Source of the DNA: a virus | Taxonomy: Duplodnaviria > Heunggongvirae > Uroviricota > Caudoviricetes | IMG/VR virus record: IMGVR_UViG_2667527698_000006 | DNA length: 10,428 bases | Reading direction: 5' to 3' (one strand) | Shown: positions 59 through 10,416 of the stretch, piece after piece | How positions within the stretch are numbered: the first letter of the stretch is position 1 | Layout: each line of letters opens with the position of its first letter | The notes under the pieces: generated by a model | What the model was told of the DNA's origin: nothing | Databases searched by the model: none | The model's input: only the letters and a program-made list of their open reading frames with translations | Program-made: the position numbers and the translations under genes

Positions 59-523
59 TTGCCAGTACACCTCAAAGAGAGTAAATCAAACCGCGCAATT
101 GGCGTTGCGCTGAATGATACTGCATGTCGCGTATTGAAAAAACAAATCGGAAATCATCACCGTTGGGTATTTGTGTACAAGGAAAGCTGTACCAAACCAG
201 ACGGAACGAAAGCGCCAACAGTAAGGAAGATGCGGTATGACGCAAACACAGCCTGGAAAGCGGCGCTGAGACGGGCTGGTATTGATGATTTCAGATTTCA
301 CGACTTGAGACACACCTGGGCAAGTTGGCTGGTTCAAGCCGGAGTCCCGTTATCAGTGTTACAGGAAATGGGAGGCTGGGAGTCTATCGAAATGGTTCGT
401 CGATATGCTCACCTCGCACCTAATCACCTTACCGAACACGCACGGCAAATAGACTTGATTCTGAACCCATCGGTCCCAAATTTGTCCCAGTCAAGAAATA
501 AGGAAGGTACTAATGATGTGTAA
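59..523 (+). CDS. int: Tyrosine recombinase (phage integrase), C-terminal catalytic domain, P22 Int-like; reading frame is closed upstream by TAG at 47-49, so this is either a 3' fragment or a frameshifted gene
   Basis: Translation carries the tyrosine-recombinase signature: box-I-like KESKSNR (Arg codon 92-94), [10 protein letters not shown] (His 299-301, Arg 308-310), [15 protein letters not shown] with the nucleophile Tyr at 404-406. Stop TAA at 521-523 lies 15 nt from the att core, as in lambda/P22 where int is transcribed toward attP. The ORF-track start is TTG at 59; the next in-frame ATG is at 230. Confidence 0.85.
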
Positions 524-872: not shown

Positions 873-1235
873 ATGTTAAAGCTATTTGCAAAGTACACAT
901 CTATAGGCGTGCTGAACACACTTATACACTGGGTGGTTTTTGGTGTATGTATCTATGCCGCGCATACCAATCAGGCTATGGCAAACTTCGCAGGTTTCGT
1001 TGTGGCTGTGAGTTTTAGCTTCTTTGCGAATGCAAAATTCACATTCAAAGCATCAACTACAACGATGCGCTACATGTTATATGTCGGGTTCATGGGAACA
1101 CTGAGTGCTACTGTTGGATGGGTTGCTGATAGATGTTCACTTCCTCCAATTGTCACTCTTGTTACCTTCTCCGCCATCAGCTTGGTGTGCGGTTTCGTCT
1201 ATTCAAAGTTCATTGTCTTTAGGGATGCGAAATGA
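873..1235 (+). CDS. gtrA: GtrA, bactoprenol-linked glucose flippase (O-antigen glucosylation / serotype conversion)
   Basis: 120-aa small hydrophobic protein [25 protein letters not shown]...[10 protein letters not shown], near-identical by recollection to GtrA of P22 and Shigella flexneri serotype-converting phages. First gene after attP. Stop overlaps the gtrB start (ATGA at 1232-1235). Confidence 0.95.
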
Positions 1236-2149
1236 AGATATCTCTTGTCGTTCCTGTCTTCAATGAAGAAGAAGCGATACCAATTTTTTATAAAACGGTA
1301 CGTGAATTCGAAGAGTTGAAGCCATATGAAGTAGAAATTGTTTTCATAAATGACGGAAGCAAAGACGCTACGGAGTCAATCATTAACGCTCTGGCTGTTT
1401 CTGATCCGCTAGTTGTTCCGCTGTCATTTACACGCAACTTTGGTAAAGAACCAGCATTGTTTGCAGGGTTAGACCATACAACCGGCGATGCCGTGATTCC
1501 AATTGATGTTGACCTGCAAGACCCGATTGAGGTTATTCCTCATCTTATTGAAAAGTGGCAGGCAGGTGCTGACATGGTGCTTGCTAAACGTTCAGACCGC
1601 TCAACTGATGGACGGCTGAAACGTAAGACAGCTGAGTGGTTCTATAAATTACACAACAAAATAAGCACCCCAAAAATAGAGGAAAATGTCGGAGATTTTC
1701 GACTCATGTCTCGTGAGGTTGTGGAGAACATTAAACTATTGCCTGAGCGCAATCTTTTCATGAAAGGCATACTGAGCTGGGTTGGTGGTCAGACAGATGT
1801 CGTTGAATATGTACGCACAGAGCGTGTTGCTGGCATCTCAAAATTTAATGGCTGGAAATTATGGAATCTGGCACTGGAAGGTATCACAAGTTTTTCAACC
1901 TTTCCTCTTCGCGTATGGACTTATATAGGCTTGTTTGTTGCAAGCATTTCATTTTTATATGGTGCATGGATGATTATAGACACCATTGTCTTTGGTAACC
2001 CAGTACGCGGGTATCCCTCCATGCTTGTATCAATACTTTTCCTGGGTGGAGTGCAACTGATCGGGATTGGTGTTCTCGGTGAATATATAGGTAGAATTTA
2101 TTTAGAAACAAAATCAAGACCACGGTACTTAATTAAAAGCAGAAAATAA
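1232..2149 (+). CDS. gtrB: GtrB, bactoprenol glucosyltransferase (GT2 family)
   Basis: 305 aa. GT2 motifs [15 protein letters not shown] and DVDLQDP, with C-terminal hydrophobic helices ([42 protein letters not shown]). Translationally coupled to gtrA; conserved gtrA-gtrB synteny. Confidence 0.95.
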
Positions 2150-2161
2150 CAGGATGATCTT

Positions 2162-3427
2162 ATGAAGATATTCATAATGCGCAATTGGCACAAGATATCA
2201 ATTTTTATACTTGCATTTACTTTGATTTGGCTTAGGCGCATTGACATTTTGACAAATGCCCAGTTTTGGGCTGAGGATGCAGTTTTTTGGTATAAAGATG
2301 CATACGAACAAGGTTTTTTCAGTTCACTCATAACCCCAAGAAATGGTTATTTTCAAACAGTATCAACACTCATTGTTGGTGCGACGACATTTATTAATCC
2401 AATTTACGCACCATTATTATCAAACTTTTTTGGAATAATAATTAGAGCTATAATTATATGGTTCTTATTTACCGATAGATTTAAATTCCTAAGCACCACA
2501 TCAAAAATCTTCATCTCTGTATATTTAATTTGCATGCCCGGGCTTGATGAAGTCCAAGCCAATATAACAAATGCTCACTGGTATTTATCATTGTATGTTG
2601 CAATGATAATAATATCTGAAGAATCCAAGTCAAAATTATGGAAAGCACATGATTTATTTTTTATAGTATTATCTGGATTGAGCGGTCCATTTATTATATT
2701 CATAATTGCATCATCTGTTTTTAAATATTTACACTTATCAAAAGGAGTAATAAGCATAAGAGGTTTATACTTATTTTATACTCGACTGCCATATTTGGCA
2801 ATGATCTTGTGTGGGCTGATACAGGCAACATCAATAATTCTTACATTTAATGGAACAAGATCACATGCTCCATTAGGATTCAGTTTTGATGTTATGTCAT
2901 CTATAATATCATCTAATGTATTTCTTTTTTCATTTGTCCCTTGGAATATCGCTAATGCTGGATGGGATAATCACCTTTTATCGTACACACTATCAACTTT
3001 AGTAATTACATTATGTGTTTTCATTTATATTAAAGGAAATTGGCAAATGAAAGTGTTTGCCACCCTTCCAATACTTATTGTCGCATTTTCTATGGCAAAA
3101 CCTCAACTGGCAGATTCTGTTCCTCAACTGCCAACACTTGCAACCGGAAACGGGTCAAGGTATTTTGTAAATATTCATATTGCAATTTTTTCATTAATAT
3201 GCGTTTGTTTGTTTCAATGCATAAAGAATAAAACCTTAAAAATATTCTTTAAAATCTATGTTTCAGTCATCCTTATTGCAATGATAAAATTAAACTTTTT
3301 TATAACCCCTCTTCCTGACATGAACTGGTCTCAAGGAGCAGAATTAATAAATAAAGCAAAACATGGAGAAGCCGTCTCATTTACAGTGCTCCCTCCATGG
3401 TTAACTCTTGATTTAATAAAAAAATAA
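2162..3427 (+). CDS. Type-specific O-antigen glucosyltransferase (GtrC-position polytopic membrane protein), specificity undetermined
   Basis: 421-aa, very hydrophobic multi-helix protein immediately downstream of gtrAB, in the position where gtr clusters carry the serotype-specific transferase. The gene is visibly AT-rich compared with gtrAB and the structural genes (judged by eye, not computed), as is typical of horizontally exchanged gtr type genes. AGGA lies 8 nt before the ATG. Confidence 0.8.
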   Translation: MKIFIMRNWHKISIFILAFTLIWLRRIDILTNAQFWAEDAVFWYKDAYEQGFFSSLITPRNGYFQTVSTLIVGATTFINPIYAPLLSNFFGIIIRAIIIWFLFTDRFKFLSTTSKIFISVYLICMPGLDEVQANITNAHWYLSLYVAMIIISEESKSKLWKAHDLFFIVLSGLSGPFIIFIIASSVFKYLHLSKGVISIRGLYLFYTRLPYLAMILCGLIQATSIILTFNGTRSHAPLGFSFDVMSSIISSNVFLFSFVPWNIANAGWDNHLLSYTLSTLVITLCVFIYIKGNWQMKVFATLPILIVAFSMAKPQLADSVPQLPTLATGNGSRYFVNIHIAIFSLICVCLFQCIKNKTLKIFFKIYVSVILIAMIKLNFFITPLPDMNWSQGAELINKAKHGEAVSFTVLPPWLTLDLIKK

Positions 3428-3493: not shown

Positions 3494-5209
3494 TTATAGT
3501 AGCCTGGTAATGCTAAATGCAAACGAACTGGAGATTCCTGCTCCGCTAAGCGTATTGCGCAGGGTCACCCTAAATGTATCTACGCCAATATAAGTAACAT
3601 CACAACTAACTGAATCAGGCGCAGATATAGGTGTTATCTGCACAATATAACCGCTAGCAACTGCTGCGAGCGGATGAGAAAAGCTAACCTCATACACACC
3701 TGTAGCAACCACGTTAACCGATGAAACACCAGTAGCAACGTCGATACTACCATTGGCGTTAATTTTTCCCGAGCGTGTGACTGACAATGCAGAAGCCGAT
3801 GTTGCCTTACTGGTTGTTTCTGTAAAAACACACCCAATGTCAACTACCTCGCAATTAGCTCCTGTTATCCAGTATGGTCGATCTGCACTTGGCTGATAAT
3901 CCCCTGCGCTCTGGAACGTTGTGCCGTTGAGTATGACTGTAACTTTTCCCCCACCTGAGCTTGTTACTTGAATATTAGTGTGCGTGTATCTTGCACTGCT
4001 CACGCGATGAAAATTTCCACCGTTTATAACCACAGTTACAGGGCGCGTCCCAGTATTATCTATAGCAAGGTCTGCCCCCCCGGCATTAGCCTCAAAGTAT
4101 GGGTTGTTTAATACCAAAGCGCACGAACCGTTAAGGCCATTTATGGCTAATTGCGCACCACCTGTACTGGAATCCCCCTGAGTACCATTTCCTTCACAAG
4201 TCAGGCTATTGATAGTTGTACCAGCACCCCAGCGGTCCCCGAGGATACCCCATTCACTGTTCTGACTGCACGTAAGCCTATTTGCAGTTATAGCGTTCAG
4301 TTCAGAATGATTTACGGAGTTGGTAGCACGCCAACCGATACGATTACTCTGCAAGTACACGTTCGTCATGTCGCTCGTGAGCATCGAGTCAGTGCGTAAC
4401 CCTTCCCCGTCAGGGTGGCGGCAGATAACAATGTTTTCAAGACGAGTATGTGCTTTATTCTGCACCAGCATACCGTAACTTCCGGGATTCCCTTTCAGCG
4501 TCATGTTGCCGATGTAGTCATATGCAGCCAATCTCTGACTGTTAAACGCTGCGTCACCTAGCATTTTTACGTTAAAATCAGTAGCTCTACATTCCAGTAT
4601 TGTCTCAGCCATGTTCTCGCCTGAGTAAAAACAGCGGACACCCGGAGCACCTACAAAGTCGGCAGGGTAATCATCATAATTAAGTACCAGAGGAGTGGTA
4701 ACATCATACACCCCTTGCTTTATTTTTAATGTTCCACCGAAAGGCCACGATGTAAGCGGGTCTTGATATATTTCATTTTTTATTGCAAATAGCTCATCTT
4801 GAAGATTTTTCCCGCTATTAGTGCCAATGTAAGTAGCCCCTTCATCAGATTGAAGTAACTGCAGAAGCTGTTCAGGGTCATACTTCAGCAAATTCGGAAA
4901 ATAGAACTGTTGCGAACCATACGCATCATATACAGCCATTGAATGGCCTTGCTCAGTTACAAATTTGGCAATCTGCCCGTTATATACCGGATAACCAGCA
5001 GCGTTAATGATGATTGGTTGAGAAACAGGAACGTGATAACCATCTTCGTTCTCCACATAAACCTGAATCTGGTTTTCAGGATTTACAGGGTCAGTGTCAA
5101 TTTTACCAATATAAATTTTACCATTGGCTACGGCTTTAAAAGAACGAGCCATAGTGAATAGTTGCGAAGGCATGCTTACCACAACATTGGCATTTATTGA
5201 ATCTGTCAT
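3494..5209 (-). CDS. Tailspike protein: P22 gp9-family N-terminal head-binding domain fused to a divergent C-terminal receptor-binding/depolymerase domain
   Basis: I place the start at ATG 5209 ([57 protein letters not shown]...), preceded by GAGA, not at the 15-codon-longer ORF-track start. The first ~115 aa closely match my recollection of the head-binding domain of HK620/Sf6/P22 tailspikes. The remainder is rich in Gly/Asn/Thr/Ser with repeated short beta-strand-like segments ([14 protein letters not shown]), consistent with a beta-helix, but not recognisable to me as the P22, Sf6 or HK620 domain. Confidence 0.9.
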
Positions 5210-5260
5210 TTTAATTTCTCTATATGTTAAGCAAGCAATATTCATTGCTAGCATGTTTTT

Positions 5261-5268
5261 TGTATAAT
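5261..5268 (+). promoter_or_regulatory. Candidate extended -10 promoter element (TGTATAAT) for the HNH endonuclease gene
   Basis: TGnTATAAT consensus at 5261-5268. A weak -35-like TTCATT at 5241-5246 gives a 16-nt spacer. AAGGTGG ribosome-binding site at 5285-5291, 5 nt before ATG 5297. Confidence 0.4.
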
Positions 5269-5296
5269 GAGTGAACTTTATTTAAAGGTGGTTAAC

Positions 5297-5806
5297 ATGA
5301 ACTGGAACGAAGTATTCGTATTAAAAGACGATGGACTCCTGTACTGGAGTGACCAATATCTCTCAAGACCCAAAATGTTCAATATCTCTAAAGAAAAGCC
5401 TGCAGGACATATATTCAAGGACAAGAACAGGAAAACATCTTATATAATTATCAGGTATCAAGATAAAATATACGCCGCTCATAGGATAATATGGGAAATG
5501 TTTTATGGTGAAATCCCTTCAGGAATGCAAATTGACCATAAAGATGGTAATGGGTTAAATAATTCAATAGACAACCTGCGTCTAGTTAGTCTCGGTGAAA
5601 ACCTAAAAAACAAATCTAAATACACAAACAATACATCTGGGTGCGCAGGTGTTTCATGGCATAAGACCCATAAAAAGTGGGTGGCATATATTAGCGACGC
5701 AGGGAAGCGCATTAATCTCGGATACTTTAAGAGTCTCGATGATGCAATTGCTGTAAGGCGTGAGGCTGAAAAGACCTATGGTTATCATGAGAATCATGGT
5801 AGGTGA
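5297..5806 (+). CDS. HNH endonuclease with C-terminal AP2 DNA-binding domain (putative free-standing homing endonuclease)
   Basis: HNH_3-type motif AAHRIIWEMFYGEIPSGMQIDHKDGNGLNNSIDNLRLVSLGEN (His codon 5537-5539, terminal Asn 5600-5602), followed by an AP2-like module SGCAGVSWHKTHKKWVAYISDAGKRINLGYFKSLDDAIAVRREAEKTYG. I prefer the start at ATG 5297, which has a good RBS, over ORF-track 5267, which overlaps the -10 element. The gene is AT-rich. Confidence 0.8.
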   Translation: MNWNEVFVLKDDGLLYWSDQYLSRPKMFNISKEKPAGHIFKDKNRKTSYIIIRYQDKIYAAHRIIWEMFYGEIPSGMQIDHKDGNGLNNSIDNLRLVSLGENLKNKSKYTNNTSGCAGVSWHKTHKKWVAYISDAGKRINLGYFKSLDDAIAVRREAEKTYGYHENHGR

Positions 5807-5937
5807 TATCTGACATTTCATTGCTCCAGACGAATGATATGATGCAACCATGATGTGATTGCATACCGAAATGGTACTATTGAGTATTTATCCAGTAGGT
5901 TACGATGCCATTCCACCCAACTGGTGAGGCATCAAGG

Positions 5938-6198
5938 ATGTACAGCAAATACGACGAGGCGCAGTTTCACTTGAGACTTCCGCATGAACTCCACGCGAAA
6001 ATTAAACAGCGTGCGAAGATGAATAACAGGTCGCTGAACTCAGAGATAATTGCAGCGATTGAAGAATCACTGGATAAACAAAACTCTGCATCAGTTTACA
6101 TTGACGATGCAGAGCGTATGGCAGAACAACAATCCGATATGGTTAAGAAAATTGTCTTTGATACGCTCAAAGAGCTATATAAAAAAGACAGCAGCTAA
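5938..6198 (+). CDS. mnt: Mnt-like ribbon-helix-helix repressor (Arc/MetJ superfamily) with C-terminal coiled-coil tetramerisation domain
   Basis: 86 aa. N-terminal RHH region AQFHLRLPHELHAKIKQRAKMNNRSLNSEIIAAIEESL. The C-terminal DDAERMAEQQSDMVKKIVFDTLKELYKK closely resembles my recollection of P22 Mnt (...DAERLADEQSELVKKMVFDTLKDLYKK). I prefer the start at ATG 5938, which has GGTGAGG 8 nt upstream, over ORF-track 5905. Orientation and position (convergent with gene 16, divergent from tailspike) match P22 immI synteny. Confidence 0.85.
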   Translation: MYSKYDEAQFHLRLPHELHAKIKQRAKMNNRSLNSEIIAAIEESLDKQNSASVYIDDAERMAEQQSDMVKKIVFDTLKELYKKDSS

Positions 6199-6287: not shown

Positions 6288-8285
6288 CTATTCTGACAAC
6301 GCATCAGACTTGGCACCCTGAGTCAGGGCGTTAATGGCCTTTTGCGCCTGCTGCATGGCTTTCTCAAACGCTGTTGATCCGCGTGGGGTGTTTGCCATTC
6401 GGAGCATTGCATTTCTGAATGGTTCGCTCTCATAGGCGCGAGTAAGAAGTCCGTAGCTTACTGCTGCGCCAGTTGTCGCCGGGTTCATTGCCGTCCCATA
6501 CCCGATAATGAACGGGATGGTTTGCTGCCCTGTTGGTGTTGTTACTGCCGCTTTTGCTGCCTGCTGAGTGGACTGAAGGTAATTTTTCAATCCTTTCAGA
6601 TAAGCAGCGTCCTGCCCCTTAAATGTGATGCCAGTCTGGTTTTGCAGGATGTTAAGCTGCCGAAGGAACTGGTCAGGGGATCCGCCAGATTTCTCCATCG
6701 CCTTTCCAATGATGCCATTGCGCATTTGCACCCTGCCAACACGACCAACTGAGTTATACAGCGTCTTAATTTCCGATTTGTTCTTGCTGAATAGCATGTT
6801 GTTGACAACTTCCGGCGTCAGGTCGCCTTTCATGAGAACATTCTTCAGCCTGGTATTCTTTAGTTTCGCCGCTTCGTCAGCGTAGACGGCATTGGCCTGC
6901 TGATATTTACGGAGAGTATCGTTGCCAAGATTCTGACCAATGGCACCATTGATATCGTCGGTCATCGCCTTGTAAACGCGCTGAATGGCAGCATCGGAAC
7001 GGTTTGGTAACACTGGTCGCTCACCCTTCACGTCCATTCTGAACTGACTGCGCAGGTCGCTTAATTGCTTCAAATCCAGATTTACCGGACCTTCAGGGCC
7101 AGCATTGCGAACAAGCTCATCACGATATGACTGAAGTTTTGAAATTGTCTCGTTATCAGCCACCTTACCAAGCTTCTGCAGGTTAGATATTTCTGTATCA
7201 ATCTGCTGAATTGCTCGCGCAGGCTGAATGTTTACTCCAGCCATAGCATTCTGAACCTGCTCCAGTCGATTACCGGCGGCACGACGAATTCCTGATGTTT
7301 TCGCTTTAAGGCTGTCAATAACAACCGCTGGATCATACTCCCCGAATTTATCAGCAAATCTCTGCACCAACTGGCTTCTCGCTTCCTGTTGCGTTGCTCT
7401 CATTCCGCTTGTTCCAGCCAGAGGGATATTTTCTGCTGTAGTCTGCGCCATTTTTCCGACGCGGGAAGTTGGTTGTAACAGGTCTGTGGTGTGCAGAGGA
7501 ACTCCTTCACGCTCTGCAAATCTGATAGCCTGCTGCGCTTCTGGCGCGATAGCGCCACGAACGCCACGATAAGCAGCACCTAATCCACGTCCGGCAGCGT
7601 TAATAGCACCGCCAGCAAGTACACCAACGCCTAAATCGGTGGCGAGTGCTTCCGCATCATCTTTCGCACTATTTGCAGCAAGTGATCCAACTGCGTTTTC
7701 AGCGAGAAGGCGAGTTGCCCCCTGAGCAATTCGACCAGCAAGTGTTGGTGCCTGTGCTGCCGCTCTCTCAACGCCAGCAGGAGTGAGGTAAGGCAATGCT
7801 TCAGCAAATACCCTTCCCTCTGTCGTTTGTGGAGTCAGCGCACCTTGCTGAAGGCCAAAGTCCTGCTCTAATCCCTGCGTTGTTACTCGTGGCGCTGGTT
7901 GATATGTCCCATCGCCAATGCCGAGTTTACCGCCAGCCCAAGCCGCCGCGCTCGTTACAGCATCGGCAACTGATGCAGGTATATTTGCCACGTTCACGCC
8001 AGCCTGCACCAGTCCGCGACCAGTCTCTTTTACTGCTTCGCCAAGATCAGACATAAATCCACTTTGCTGTGGTTGTTGCTGTGCTACTGGTTGTTGTGTC
8101 TCCACTGGCTGCACAGATGGCAATGGATAGGCAGCATAGAAAGCTTGCTTAGCCTGCTCTGCATTTTCTCCGGCTTGCGGGGCCACGACTTCATTGAAGT
8201 ATTGCTCCTGAGCCTGCGCTTTTTGTTCTGGTGCTAACGCCTGATACTGTGGAGAGGCGATAACATCTTTCCATGCTTTAGCCAT
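6288..8285 (-). CDS. Ejection (DNA-injection) protein, P22 gp16-like
   Basis: 665 aa, Ala/Gln/Gly-rich, last gene of a 7-20-16 collinear block upstream of the immI/tailspike region, as in P22. Start ATG (8285-8283) overlaps the stop of the preceding gene (TAATG), indicating translational coupling. Confidence 0.8.
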   Translation of the reverse strand: MAKAWKDVIASPQYQALAPEQKAQAQEQYFNEVVAPQAGENAEQAKQAFYAAYPLPSVQPVETQQPVAQQQPQQSGFMSDLGEAVKETGRGLVQAGVNVANIPASVADAVTSAAAWAGGKLGIGDGTYQPAPRVTTQGLEQDFGLQQGALTPQTTEGRVFAEALPYLTPAGVERAAAQAPTLAGRIAQGATRLLAENAVGSLAANSAKDDAEALATDLGVGVLAGGAINAAGRGLGAAYRGVRGAIAPEAQQAIRFAEREGVPLHTTDLLQPTSRVGKMAQTTAENIPLAGTSGMRATQQEARSQLVQRFADKFGEYDPAVVIDSLKAKTSGIRRAAGNRLEQVQNAMAGVNIQPARAIQQIDTEISNLQKLGKVADNETISKLQSYRDELVRNAGPEGPVNLDLKQLSDLRSQFRMDVKGERPVLPNRSDAAIQRVYKAMTDDINGAIGQNLGNDTLRKYQQANAVYADEAAKLKNTRLKNVLMKGDLTPEVVNNMLFSKNKSEIKTLYNSVGRVGRVQMRNGIIGKAMEKSGGSPDQFLRQLNILQNQTGITFKGQDAAYLKGLKNYLQSTQQAAKAAVTTPTGQQTIPFIIGYGTAMNPATTGAAVSYGLLTRAYESEPFRNAMLRMANTPRGSTAFEKAMQQAQKAINALTQGAKSDALSE

Positions 8286-9714
8286 TAATCACCCCATAGT
8301 GAAGAAAAGTTACTGCTGGCTGCTGGCTGTGATACCTGTGCAGGTTGAGATTGCTTCCGCTGAGATTTACCAACATTAACGTTATATTGTTGGTTGTAAT
8401 TGTTGGTGTATTCCTGAATCTCACGAATCGACTGCTGCATAGCCTCCGGGCTTGAATAGTCAACCTGCGGCATCCCCTGAAAATACATCTTCGCTTCTGC
8501 AACGGTGTTAATACCACTGGCACCCATGTCCCTTGCTGCCGCCACACCCTGATTCTGCATTCTGCCCTGAATACGTTGTGCTGAGTTATATAACTGGCGC
8601 TGCTCTTTTCCCGTTAATCGGCTGCGAACATCAGCACCAATTGCTGGATTACCTGCACCACCTGTCATTCCTGTCATGAAATCGAGAGCAGAAGCGTCTG
8701 CATTTGCGATCGCGTCGATATCCTTCTTCATGGCATAGTTTTGTGCTGATGCAGACGATGTTGCAGGCGCAGCGATTGAACTGGCAGGGACGCGAACCAT
8801 ATTCCCATCGTTGTCGATGCCTTCGTAGAACGCATTAGCCCCAGCGCCATGAAGCTTCCCGCCTACCGTTACAGTTCTGCCATCTGATAACTGAACTGTA
8901 CGCTCATCATTCCCAGCGATTCCTCTTGTTGACGCTCGCTGCATTGCCAAATCCTGACCTCGTCGCGCAGTAGAAGCAGATAAGTCCTGACCGCGCATCG
9001 TGATGTTCTGGCCTCGTGCTGTTAGCGCCTCGCCAGCCTGATTGCTGCGGATTGTCTCTGCAAGTTTCCCGCGATCAATCTCACGACCAGCCATCTTGTC
9101 CTGAACATTGAAGTAATCAATTGGACCAAGAGCAGCCATTCCAAGGTGATCAACAAACTCACCAAATCCTGAAGGGTTCTGCTGATACATCTGAGCAACG
9201 TTATTAGGGTCAACACCGACGCGCGCCAGCTCATTGGCGTTGTTTTGCAGCCATGATTGCATTGCTTCTGGAGAAGATGACGCAAGACGTGCGCCAGCCG
9301 CTAATGTACCGATAGAATTACGCTGGTCTTCATCAATGAATCCCATGCCTTTACGAACGGATTCAATCTGGTCTGGATATTGAGTAGCCAACTGACGCAA
9401 AGCACCGCGATCACCAGAAGCATAAGCATTAGCGTATGCCTGCTGAAATTCTTTCTGCCGCTGAGCCTGCTTTTCCTGCTGAAACACCCCCGCAATACCT
9501 GAAAGGCCTTGCAAAGCAGTCAGCCCAACATTGTTAGCGCCTGAACGCTCAATATCATTGTTCTGCCTGATAAGCTGAAGNNNNNNNNNNNNNNNNNNNN
9601 NNNNNNNNNNNNNNNNNNNNNNNNNNNNNNNNNNNNNNNNNNNNNNNNNNNNNNNNNNNNNNNNNNNNNNNNNNNNNNNNNNNNNNNNNNATTTGATCCT
9701 TGCCAAGTAGCCAT
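8285..9714 (-). CDS. Ejection protein, P22 gp20-like; coding sequence interrupted by a 110-nt N run, true length and frame across the gap unknown
   Basis: Probable start ATG at 9714 (MATWQGSN...), with GGGG RBS 5 nt upstream and 9 nt after the gp7 stop. Downstream of the gap the long open frame (…[20 protein letters not shown]… to stop at 8285-8287) continues. The ORF-track N-terminus MGRWHW... lies inside gene 7 in another frame and is an artefact of reading through N. Confidence 0.75.
9581..9690. other. Assembly/scaffold gap (110 N)
   Basis: Uninterrupted run of n characters. Confidence 0.99.
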
Positions 9715-9723
9715 GATTACCCC

Positions 9724-10416
9724 TTAAAACAACGAGCCAAGCAATCCGATACCAGCACCAATGCCAGCGCCCCAAGGTGTTGATGTTCCCAAAAGGCTGG
9801 CAAGACCTGCACCGGCAATCGCACCAGACGTTCCGCCACTAATTGCTGTCTGAAGACTTGATGGTTTGTTGGCATTAGCAGCGGCAAGAGCTGCGCTTTG
9901 CTGTGCAATGCTGCTCATGTTGTTGGCGTACGTCTGCCCGGCGTTTGCCTGACCTTGCAGCGCACCAAGCCCAACGTTTGCCAGATTGTTGTAATTGCTC
10001 ATCTGGTTTGATAACCAAGACTGACCGAGTGTCGGCGCGATCGTAGCCAGTTGATTGCTTGTGGCTGTCGAACCAAGTCCACCCGTCGCCTCCGCAGCAG
10101 CAAGACTCTGGTAACGCGCCTGACCTGCAAGGTCTTTATACTGCTGAGAGTTGTAATACTGATTAAGTGCCTGCCCCTGACCTTCTAAACTGGAAAGATT
10201 CTGCAACTGGTTAACATACTGCTCCGCAAGAGGCGTGAACGGAGCAAGGTTTTTCATGATCGTCTGCCACTGCTGATTTTGCAGGTCTGCTGCATACTTC
10301 TGAGCTTCTGCGGCATACTTTGCGCTTTTATCAGAACTTCCACCTTTCCCACCCTTTTCAGGGCAATAAGGTTCCTCGCCGCGCAGTTTTCTGCCCAGCT
10401 TAAATGCATATAACAT
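9724..10416 (-). CDS. Ejection protein, P22 gp7-like
   Basis: 230 aa (P22 gp7 is about 229 aa by recollection), MLYAFKLGRKLRGEEPYCPEKGGKGG... with a Gly/Ala-rich hydrophobic C-terminus. GGAG RBS 7 nt upstream of ATG 10416. First gene of the 7-20-16 block. Confidence 0.8.
   Translation of the reverse strand: MLYAFKLGRKLRGEEPYCPEKGGKGGSSDKSAKYAAEAQKYAADLQNQQWQTIMKNLAPFTPLAEQYVNQLQNLSSLEGQGQALNQYYNSQQYKDLAGQARYQSLAAAEATGGLGSTATSNQLATIAPTLGQSWLSNQMSNYNNLANVGLGALQGQANAGQTYANNMSSIAQQSAALAAANANKPSSLQTAISGGTSGAIAGAGLASLLGTSTPWGAGIGAGIGLLGSLF

Follow-up and report, generated by a model that had tools for sequence, protein, structure and literature searches.

A probable homing endonuclease gene at the start of the tailspike gene in P22-like prophages of Escherichia coli

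The endonuclease gene and its product

The stretch of DNA considered here (IMG/VR record IMGVR_UViG_2667527698_000006; 10,428 bp, referred to below as the window) belongs to a P22-like (Lederbergvirus-type) prophage of Escherichia coli, of which it forms the integrase-proximal end. The start of the tailspike gene (5209, minus strand) and the start of an mnt homologue (5938, plus strand) are separated by a gap of exactly 5210–5937, in which there is a single plus-strand open reading frame (ORF). This ORF encodes an HNH_3-AP2 endonuclease and is probably a homing endonuclease gene. Its longest reading in the ORF listing extends from 5267 to 5806, and the true start is most likely to be at 5297 (MNWNEVF), because a Shine-Dalgarno sequence, AAAGGTGG, is found at 5284–5291, the RefSeq protein of identical prophages has 169 amino acids and the homologues begin at this position. 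RefSeq already labels the gene as “HNH endonuclease signature motif containing protein”. The coordinates of the gene, of its domains and of the surrounding features are given in Table 1.

The first-pass annotation, made from the sequence alone, described a single AT-rich gene on the strand opposite to the tailspike gene, with an HNH_3 nuclease fused to an AP2 domain, an architecture typical of free-standing phage homing endonucleases, and this description is borne out by the Pfam matches, the structural model and the base composition (35.9% GC for the cassette that carries the gene, versus 45% for the tailspike gene and 51.5% for gene 16). The match to the Pfam HNH_3 model is strong (E = 1.5e-20, 72.4–72.9 bits against a cut-off of 24.8). 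For AP2 (PF00847), the window protein alone scores 22.8–23.9 bits (E = 5e-5 to 1e-4), below the curated cut-off of 33.3, and AP2 matches were obtained for 27 of 42 relatives of the endonuclease, the best with E = 3.5e-12. The AlphaFold model of the protein has a mean predicted local distance difference test (pLDDT) score of 94. Its C-terminal part consists of strands at residues 119–122, 127–134 and 137–144 followed by a helix at 147–161, an AP2-like arrangement of a three-strand sheet and a helix, and a strand-strand-helix unit is modelled at residues 77–103, in the region of the beta-beta-alpha-metal motif. In a Foldseek search of the PDB, I-HmuI ranked first (103 columns), followed by the AP2 domains of WRI1, TEM1 and AtERF1; the E-values are weak (0.01 or above) because each match spans one domain only. 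The superposition on AtERF1 (1gcc) has a root-mean-square deviation of 1.2 A over 48 columns and a TM-score of 0.64 on the target. An AP2 domain is, thus, supported by the family scan and the predicted structure, despite the sub-threshold Pfam score.

In an alignment with I-HmuI (PDB 1u3e; E = 2.3e-5), residues D80-H81 and N105 of the endonuclease correspond to D74-H75 and N96. Substitutions were looked for at the HNH catalytic residues: H62, D80, H81, N89, N93 and N105 are invariant in the 42 relatives and, as judged from these alignments, the catalytic residues are intact. Comparisons between lineages gave proportions of nonsynonymous differences (pN) of 0.10–0.25 versus proportions of synonymous differences (pS) of 0.66–1.0, with a ratio of the corresponding rates (dN/dS) of about 0.1 where computable, synonymous sites being saturated in five of the six lineage pairs, for which only pN and pS are given. 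On these substitution patterns, the protein is under purifying selection between lineages. A scan of the window against Rfam returned no match, and no intron family in particular. The gene is not inside an intron or intein, because the ORF is on the strand opposite to the tailspike gene, has its own -10 element and Shine-Dalgarno sequence, and is without an Rfam intron match.

A cassette within the first codons of the tailspike gene

The boundaries of the insertion, which the first-pass annotation had proposed to define by comparison with P22-like relatives, were obtained from alleles lacking the endonuclease gene (empty alleles). The window is identical to the empty allele L003 through position 5188, and again from 5802, and 613 bp (5189–5801) replace 3 bp, TGC; the boundaries relative to the empty alleles are 5188/5189 and 5801/5802. 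The cassette separates codon 5 from codon 6 of the empty allele, ATG TCA GAT ATC ACC / GCA AAT GTT (MSDIT/ANV). On the tailspike side, it contributes the first six codons of the gene (MTDSIN), with one Ser codon more than the MSDITA or MTDITA of empty alleles, and the usual tailspike leader, CTGGAGCAA(A)T(T/G)AA, is replaced by that of the cassette, ATAGAGAAATTAAA. On the other side, the original start of the tailspike gene is left as an orphan, which is overlapped by the last codon and the stop codon of the endonuclease gene (AGG TGA, 5801–5806, with TGA at 5804–5806). As far as can be read from the sequence, this structure, with a substitute leader and substitute codons, preserves the function of the tailspike gene.

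To the right of the cassette, nothing but the 29-bp orphan stretch (5802–5830) is common to loci with mnt and loci with ant as the next element. In E. coli strain 81, the right flank matches the window to 5830 and is then followed by the ant terminator, as in the cassette-free L055. Empty alleles are known both with mnt (L003, IME10 and Sf101) and with ant (L055) as the neighbour. The travelling unit consists of the cassette, about 29–50 nt of the tailspike gene and the 29 nt of the orphan start. A repeat search missed the imperfect repeat of the start region that flanks the cassette, the two copies being too diverged and gapped, and the repeat was set by alignment to empty alleles. The comparison of alleles supports an insertion with sharp boundaries, located inside the tailspike coding sequence and not in the neighbouring group of immunity genes.

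Independence from arc and ant

In P22, the same stretch, from gene 16 to the tailspike gene, holds the immI region, or “ant moron” (mnt, arc, sar and ant), and this region is highly variable between P22-like phages (PMC2629481). The window resembles P22 in having an mnt homologue here, and differs from it in having no arc, ant or sar and in carrying an endonuclease gene whose presence is independent of moron content. The first-pass annotation had found no Arc- or Ant-like ORF in 5210–5937, and this is confirmed: the interval contains four antisense ORFs (45–69 amino acids), none with a Pfam match at E <= 1, so a hidden Arc or Ant in another frame is ruled out. A search for arc, ant and sar between mnt and the tailspike gene (antisense ORFs against Pfam, and Rfam) found none of them.

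The further claim, that the endonuclease gene occupies the arc/ant slot and has replaced these genes, does not hold, because empty alleles with mnt only and occupied alleles with ant, arc and mnt both exist. In at least 25 E. coli genomes, among them that of strain SC418, and in the phages IME10 and Sf101, the tailspike gene is directly beside mnt, and arc, ant and the HNH gene are all missing; in the empty relatives, 121 bp separate the tailspike start from mnt. The loss of arc and ant is thus independent of the HNH gene, since relatives free of the latter also lack them; mnt-only “ant morons” have already been described in ST64T and related phages (PMC2629481). The converse is seen in E. coli strain 81, where the cassette (99.3% identity) is found between the tailspike gene and a complete ant-arc-mnt set. 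The Salmonella enterica homologue (75% amino-acid identity) adjoins mnt and antirepressor genes, a homologue on a metagenomic contig (64%) adjoins ant-arc-mnt, and that of Enterobacter ludwigii (83%) lies between the tailspike gene and gene 16, with no moron. In the loci compared, the constant neighbour of the endonuclease is the tailspike gene, and there is no dependence on arc or ant. The suggestion of a mobile-gene insertion or replacement therefore survives in its first half, as that of a putative mobile endonuclease, given the base-pair boundaries and the comparative evidence, and fails in its second. The lesson for annotation is that the absence of arc and ant is not caused by the endonuclease gene.

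The mnt gene of the window (5938–6198) stands without arc or ant, as in many E. coli prophages in which the tailspike gene and mnt are adjacent. The 121-bp spacer (5817–5937) contains CCACCCAACTGGTG, which recalls the half-symmetry of Mnt-type operators. PHROGs and the Sf101 record call the Mnt protein a “partition protein ATPase”, which looks like a misannotation.

Distribution and evidence of mobility

A survey of 5426 complete E. coli genomes gave 15 with the cassette, which has one copy in each and is always under a tailspike annotation. Clustering of the proteins yielded six clusters (at least 64% identity), from E. coli, Enterobacter ludwigii, Salmonella and three metagenomic lineages, and in all of them the gene is divergent from, and beside, a Head_binding tailspike gene, with varying neighbours on the far side; the next relative (45% identity), in a prophage region of Serratia, is in an unrelated context. 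An HNH-family protein in the late region of a phage might be thought to be a packaging-associated nuclease working with the terminase, as in some cos phages. The probability of this is negligible: the gene is far from the terminase genes, encodes an HNH_3-AP2 architecture, is transcribed in the direction opposite to the late operon and is absent from nearly all relatives, and P22-like phages package their DNA by a headful (pac) mechanism.

Among ten E. coli loci, the cassette is 97.4–100% identical, whereas the adjoining 345 nt of the tailspike gene are 89.6–93.3% identical in loci other than L013 and L014, which are identical to the window. The IMG/VR contig L013 matches the window at 100% around the tailspike start and at 99.9% at tailspike positions 700–1500. 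In the loci that are not copies of the window, the receptor-binding domains are unrelated, and the upstream regions are also unrelated in L004, L034 and L059. L005, for example, has 2 differences from the window in the 613 bp of the cassette versus 30 in the 345 bp of the tailspike gene (p = 5e-12), and the Fisher p values for this comparison of cassette and flank range from 5e-12 to 2e-7. Identity on the tailspike side ends 29–50 nt into the gene, and the polymorphisms from +30 or +51 onwards also occur in cassette-free alleles. An orphan start with its ribosome-binding site directly follows the stop codon in five of the six lineages, and it varies with the background while the junction is constant: ATG TCA GAT ATC A in E. 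coli, ATG TCA GAC ATC A in a metagenomic lineage and, at the same junction, ATG ACA GAC ATT A (MTDIT-type) in Escherichia whittamii. These comparisons support a horizontal spread of the cassette, which appears to be moving or to have moved recently.

The E. whittamii locus (strain Sa2BVA5, L094:3000–3400) holds a decayed copy of the endonuclease gene, truncated at its 5' end, with a frameshift and an in-frame TAA, followed by the orphan start ATGACAGACATTA; the head-binding part of the adjoining tailspike is missing. It was one of two loci returned by a scan of a collection with one genome per species.

A second endonuclease at the same junction

A second HNH_3-AP2 gene occupies this position in the IMG/VR loci L020 (1960–2502), L041 and L070, and in 15 further complete E. 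coli genomes. Its product is 42% identical to the endonuclease of the window over 92 residues; both belong to PHROG 99, “HNH endonuclease”, and the second gene is likewise divergent from the tailspike gene. The end of its ORF, AGT AGG TGA TATCTGACAT, reproduces the junction and the orphan start seen in the window. The tailspike gene beside it begins with another substitute 5' end (MPEQLYNVVVSQPSQLFTL), and the remainder of this gene has 85% identity to the tailspike gene of the window. Either both endonucleases use one site, or recombination in the flanks common to both replaced one cassette by the other.

Start alleles of the tailspike gene

Every tailspike linked to the first endonuclease clade starts with M[TS]DSI, whereas cassette-free alleles start with MTDIT or MSDIT or, in the HK620 type, with MTDSIN. 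In Salmonella, the insertion of a TCC codon is all that distinguishes the occupied allele from the VSe13-type start. In the IMG/VR sample, which is biased because MTDSINAN served as a capture pattern, the element was present in 0 of 40 M[TS]DIT and in 7 of 35 MTDSIN alleles (p = 0.003). The idea that the extra Ser codon is exclusive to the cassette was rejected for E. coli, in which 28 MTDSINAN alleles are cassette-free. The form M[TS]DSIT had no match in IMG/VR and one in the Joint Genome Institute (JGI) metagenomes, where it accompanies the cassette, too few for a conclusion.

The HK620-type alleles have a normal ribosome-binding site (CTGGAGCAAATTAA) and the MTDSIN start, with no endonuclease gene, and both leader variants, AAATTAAATG and AAATTAAAATG, are found among them. 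Comparison of the alleles suggests that this start may be a scar, left by loss of the cassette through recombination between the flanking copies of the start region, or a product of co-conversion. The same observations could be read the other way round, with the occupied arrangement as the ancestral one and the empty alleles as deletions, so that the locus would present a deletion polymorphism and not a mobile insertion. The imperfect copies of the start region on either side of the cassette (5189–5223 and 5802–5830) could mediate such a deletion, and the HK620-type start resembles its product. This reading is nevertheless very improbable. The orphan start is a truncated duplicate, which makes sense only as the displaced original; the cassette retains at least 97.4% identity across backgrounds that differ by 7–10% immediately beside it; its base composition is unlike that of its surroundings; and the M[TS]DIT empty alleles represent the majority state, both in E. 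coli and in 91 matched Salmonella-type phage records.

Expression signals

An extended -10 element of the endonuclease gene was read by eye (Table 1). A consensus promoter scan did not call this promoter, as no -35 hexamer reaches 4 of 6 matches. A match of the scan at 5810–5838 was discarded as weak (9 of 12, below the expectation from shuffled sequence). The palindrome just upstream of the -10 element is preserved as GTAAT-ATTT-ATTAC in Enterobacter, where both arms have changed, and has one mismatch each in Salmonella and in one metagenomic lineage; it may be an operator, for autoregulation for instance. No terminator-like site was found between the endonuclease gene and mnt. Given the established biology of P22, the expression of the tailspike must require late transcription to pass antisense through the endonuclease gene (PMC2629481).

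AP2 is a transcription-factor domain in plants and apicomplexans, and the homing endonuclease I-TevI doubles as an autorepressor. Together with the palindrome beside the -10 element and the lack of a terminator-like site before mnt, this could point to a domesticated AP2 regulator, a repressor controlling the tailspike gene or mnt in place of Arc and Ant, for which the nuclease would be irrelevant. Such a role is hard to reconcile with the invariance, under purifying selection, of all the HNH catalytic and metal-binding residues. The gene is also found both where arc, ant and mnt are all present and where none of them is, and it is dispensable in about 98% of relatives, making a regulatory function highly unlikely.

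The direction of the -10 element, away from the late operon, would permit expression from the prophage, and the gene is located in the region of the P22 superinfection and immunity functions sieA, mnt and ant (PMC2629481). All copies found are in prophages or IMG/VR viral contigs, with none in the record of an isolated phage. The product might, therefore, be a “moron” nuclease that protects the lysogen by cutting the DNA of incoming related phages (superinfection exclusion), with no homing. This alternative, although less implausible than a regulatory function, is unlikely: the cassette tracks the tailspike start and not the moron, the replacement 5' end of the tailspike gene and the orphan start point to site-specific insertion, and a second, different endonuclease is found at the same junction. 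Exclusion and homing are in any case compatible, and the seg genes of T4 do both.

A homing model

The gene at 5297–5806 is probably a free-standing homing endonuclease gene with the translation-start region of the P22-like tailspike gene as its home site. This interpretation is put forward because the protein combines a nuclease and a DNA-binding part, presence and absence of the gene are defined to the base pair, the site is the same in every lineage, the cassette appears to have spread horizontally, its junction has been reused and a decayed copy exists. By analogy with I-HmuI and the T4 seg/mob enzymes, the AP2 domain would recognize a sequence within the start region of cassette-free alleles (M[TS]DITAN), or close to it, and these alleles would be nicked or cut near the tailspike start by the HNH domain, when a cassette-bearing P22-like genome meets a cassette-free one in co-infection or in superinfection of a lysogen. 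The break would be repaired from the cassette-bearing copy, with the head-binding region of the tailspike gene as the left homology arm and the orphan start with its ribosome-binding site as the right one, and the recipient would thereby acquire both the cassette and the MTDSI codons. The genome carrying the cassette would itself be protected by the splitting of the target site and by the extra Ser codon. The shortness of the tract that travels with the cassette (29–50 nt of the tailspike gene, and 29 nt on the other side) argues, without proving it, for a cut near the junction. The first-pass annotation also suggested marker exclusion or cleavage of the genomes of related phages, which is plausible by analogy with T4 seg/mob (PMC2988022).

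Several points weigh against homing at this site. The cassette is rare, occurring in 15 of the 1016 E. coli genomes in which a head-binding domain of the P22-like type is encoded, and no homologue above 60% identity was found among 50,697 records of isolated phages, the top-listed homologues there being 46–49% identical and located at other sites in unrelated virulent siphophages. A recent insertion followed by ordinary homologous recombination around it can also leave a conserved cassette in diverged flanks, without any activity of an endonuclease. The target sequence is read from the junctions only, its cleavage and a biased inheritance of the cassette being predicted, and free-standing endonucleases of T4 often cut hundreds of base pairs from their own gene (PMC2988022); the cut site of the cassette, therefore, need not be at codons 5/6. 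Finally, 28 of the 35 MTDSINAN alleles in IMG/VR, at position 2501 of their loci and including that of phage HK620 (L028), are without the cassette, and the extra Ser codon may be a polymorphism of the usual kind, with no bearing on immunity to the enzyme.

Comparison with known systems

I-HmuI of the Bacillus phage SPO1 (PDB 1u3e) is the best PDB match of the endonuclease by sequence and by fold; it shares the HNH_3-type nuclease core and is a site-specific enzyme that promotes the spread of its own gene. It nicks one strand, its gene is in a group I intron of a DNA polymerase gene, and its C-terminal DNA-binding part is of another kind. The gene in the window, unlike that of I-HmuI, is on the strand opposite to its host gene, has no Rfam intron match and encodes an AP2 domain. 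HNH-AP2 homing endonucleases have been recognized as a family of phages, cyanobacteria and ciliates (Magnani et al. 2004, as cited in PMC10448857). These endonucleases and the IPA-HNH genes of the Vibrio phage ICP1 have the same order of an N-terminal HNH and a C-terminal AP2 domain as the gene of the window and are also free-standing in phage genomes. The ICP1 genes are too divergent for the Pfam HNH_3 model (PMC10448857), to which the protein of the window is a strong match.

The “intronless homing” genes seg and mob of T4 are also located outside introns and inteins, with presence or absence varying between related phages, and they spread by double-strand-break repair, with co-conversion of flanking markers and marker exclusion (PMC2988022, PMC2790892). 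The T4 genes lie between genes, and their products often cut hundreds to thousands of base pairs away, whereas the cassette is inside the first codons of an essential structural gene, to which it brings a substitute 5' end, leaving behind an orphan start; it is harboured by a temperate prophage, T4 being virulent. The HNH-AP2 family and free-standing phage endonucleases are already known, and the cassette is in this respect an ordinary kind of phage mobile element. The literature searched contained no description of an endonuclease at the start of a P22-like tailspike gene, an earlier mention in Casjens and Grose 2016 (PMC4969182) being possible.

Other features of the window

The tailspike consists of a P22-type head-binding domain followed by a receptor-binding domain; the receptor-binding part (3494–4830, residues about 125–571) has no Pfam match. 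None of the 5426 complete E. coli genomes exceeds 94% identity to the tailspike DNA at 4865–5188, and the exact prophage is thus not represented in that collection. An O-antigen glucosylation cluster, gtrA-gtrB-gtrC-like (873–3427), lies between the integrase and tailspike genes, and the product of its third gene (2162–3427) is probably a serotype-specific glucosyltransferase. In L004, L005 and L006, which have the same endonuclease, an acyltransferase is found in place of this cluster. The mnt product starts with MYSKYDEAQF, its ATG being at 5938. A run of 110 N at 9581–9690, an assembly gap or a masked stretch, is located inside the homologue of the ejection-protein gene 20 and results in a block of X in the translation of that ORF.

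Table 1. Positions of the endonuclease cassette, its parts and the other genes of the window
Feature	Position	Strand	Remarks
Integrase C-terminus	59–523	+	
gtrA	873–1235		
gtrB	1232–2149		
gtrC-like membrane protein	2162–3427		AT-rich (about 30% GC); no Pfam match
Tailspike gene	3494–5209	-	Pfam Head_binding, E = 1.3e-62; ATG at 5209–5207, as the RefSeq start in identical prophage genes
Cassette-linked first seven tailspike codons, ATG ACA GAT TCA ATA AAT GCC (MTDSINA)	5189–5209	-	Translation checked
Endonuclease cassette	5192–5801	.	610 bp, absent from empty alleles; the first 3 of the 613 bp are a GCA-to-GCC synonymous change
Cassette-borne tailspike leader and weak ribosome-binding site	5210–5223	-	Reverse complement ATAGAGAAATTAAA; kept in the cassettes of six lineages
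Palindrome AGCAAT-ATTC-ATTGCT	5234–5249	.	Just upstream of the endonuclease -10 element
Extended -10 element of the endonuclease gene, TGTATAAT	5261–5268	+	Read by eye; TATAAT (5263–5268) invariant in six lineages
HNH_3-AP2 endonuclease gene	5297–5806	+	169 amino acids
HNH motif	Residues 59–102 (about 5471–5602)	+	
AP2 fold	Residues about 113–161 (about 5633–5779)	+	
Orphan original tailspike start, ATG TCA GAT ATC ACC (MSDIT)	5802–5816	-	Continuous with empty-allele sequence
Orphan original tailspike leader and ribosome-binding site	5817–5830	-	Reverse complement TCTGGAGCAATGAA
mnt homologue (Arc-like ribbon-helix-helix and Mnt C-terminal domain)	5938–6198	+	Pfam Arc, E = 3e-14; Repressor_Mnt, E = 3e-14
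Ejection-protein genes homologous to P22 16, 20 and 7	6288–10416	-	

Implications for P22-like phages

Homing endonucleases have been studied mostly in virulent phages (T4, SPO1, ICP1), and the cassette described here provides a clean natural case in temperate P22-like prophages, with occupied, empty, decayed and possibly “scar” alleles. What sets it apart is the insertion in the first codons of an essential gene, with a substitute 5' end, and the presence of two endonuclease families at one junction. Existing phages already span the start alleles: HK620 has MTDSIN, Sf101 and IME10 have MSDIT, and relatives of P22 such as VSe13 have MTDIT.

A broader scenario, offered tentatively and rather doubtful as a whole, is a competition between two HNH-AP2 endonucleases, unrelated in appearance, for a single homing site at the start of the P22-like tailspike gene, with the breaks they make driving the exchange of tailspikes (and of host range with them) and of “ant morons” among temperate phages of Escherichia, Salmonella and Enterobacter. 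The MTDSIN start of HK620 would then be a cleavage-resistant scar, and the enzyme, expressed from the prophage, would exclude or convert superinfecting relatives. At the site itself, the conserved head-binding domain of the tailspike meets the block of the late operon that varies most, and a nuclease cutting there could help to explain the frequent reshuffling of tailspike modules and “ant morons” in these phages, an idea that would fit the proposal that nuclease genes mark the boundaries of genetic exchange between phages (PMC10448857).

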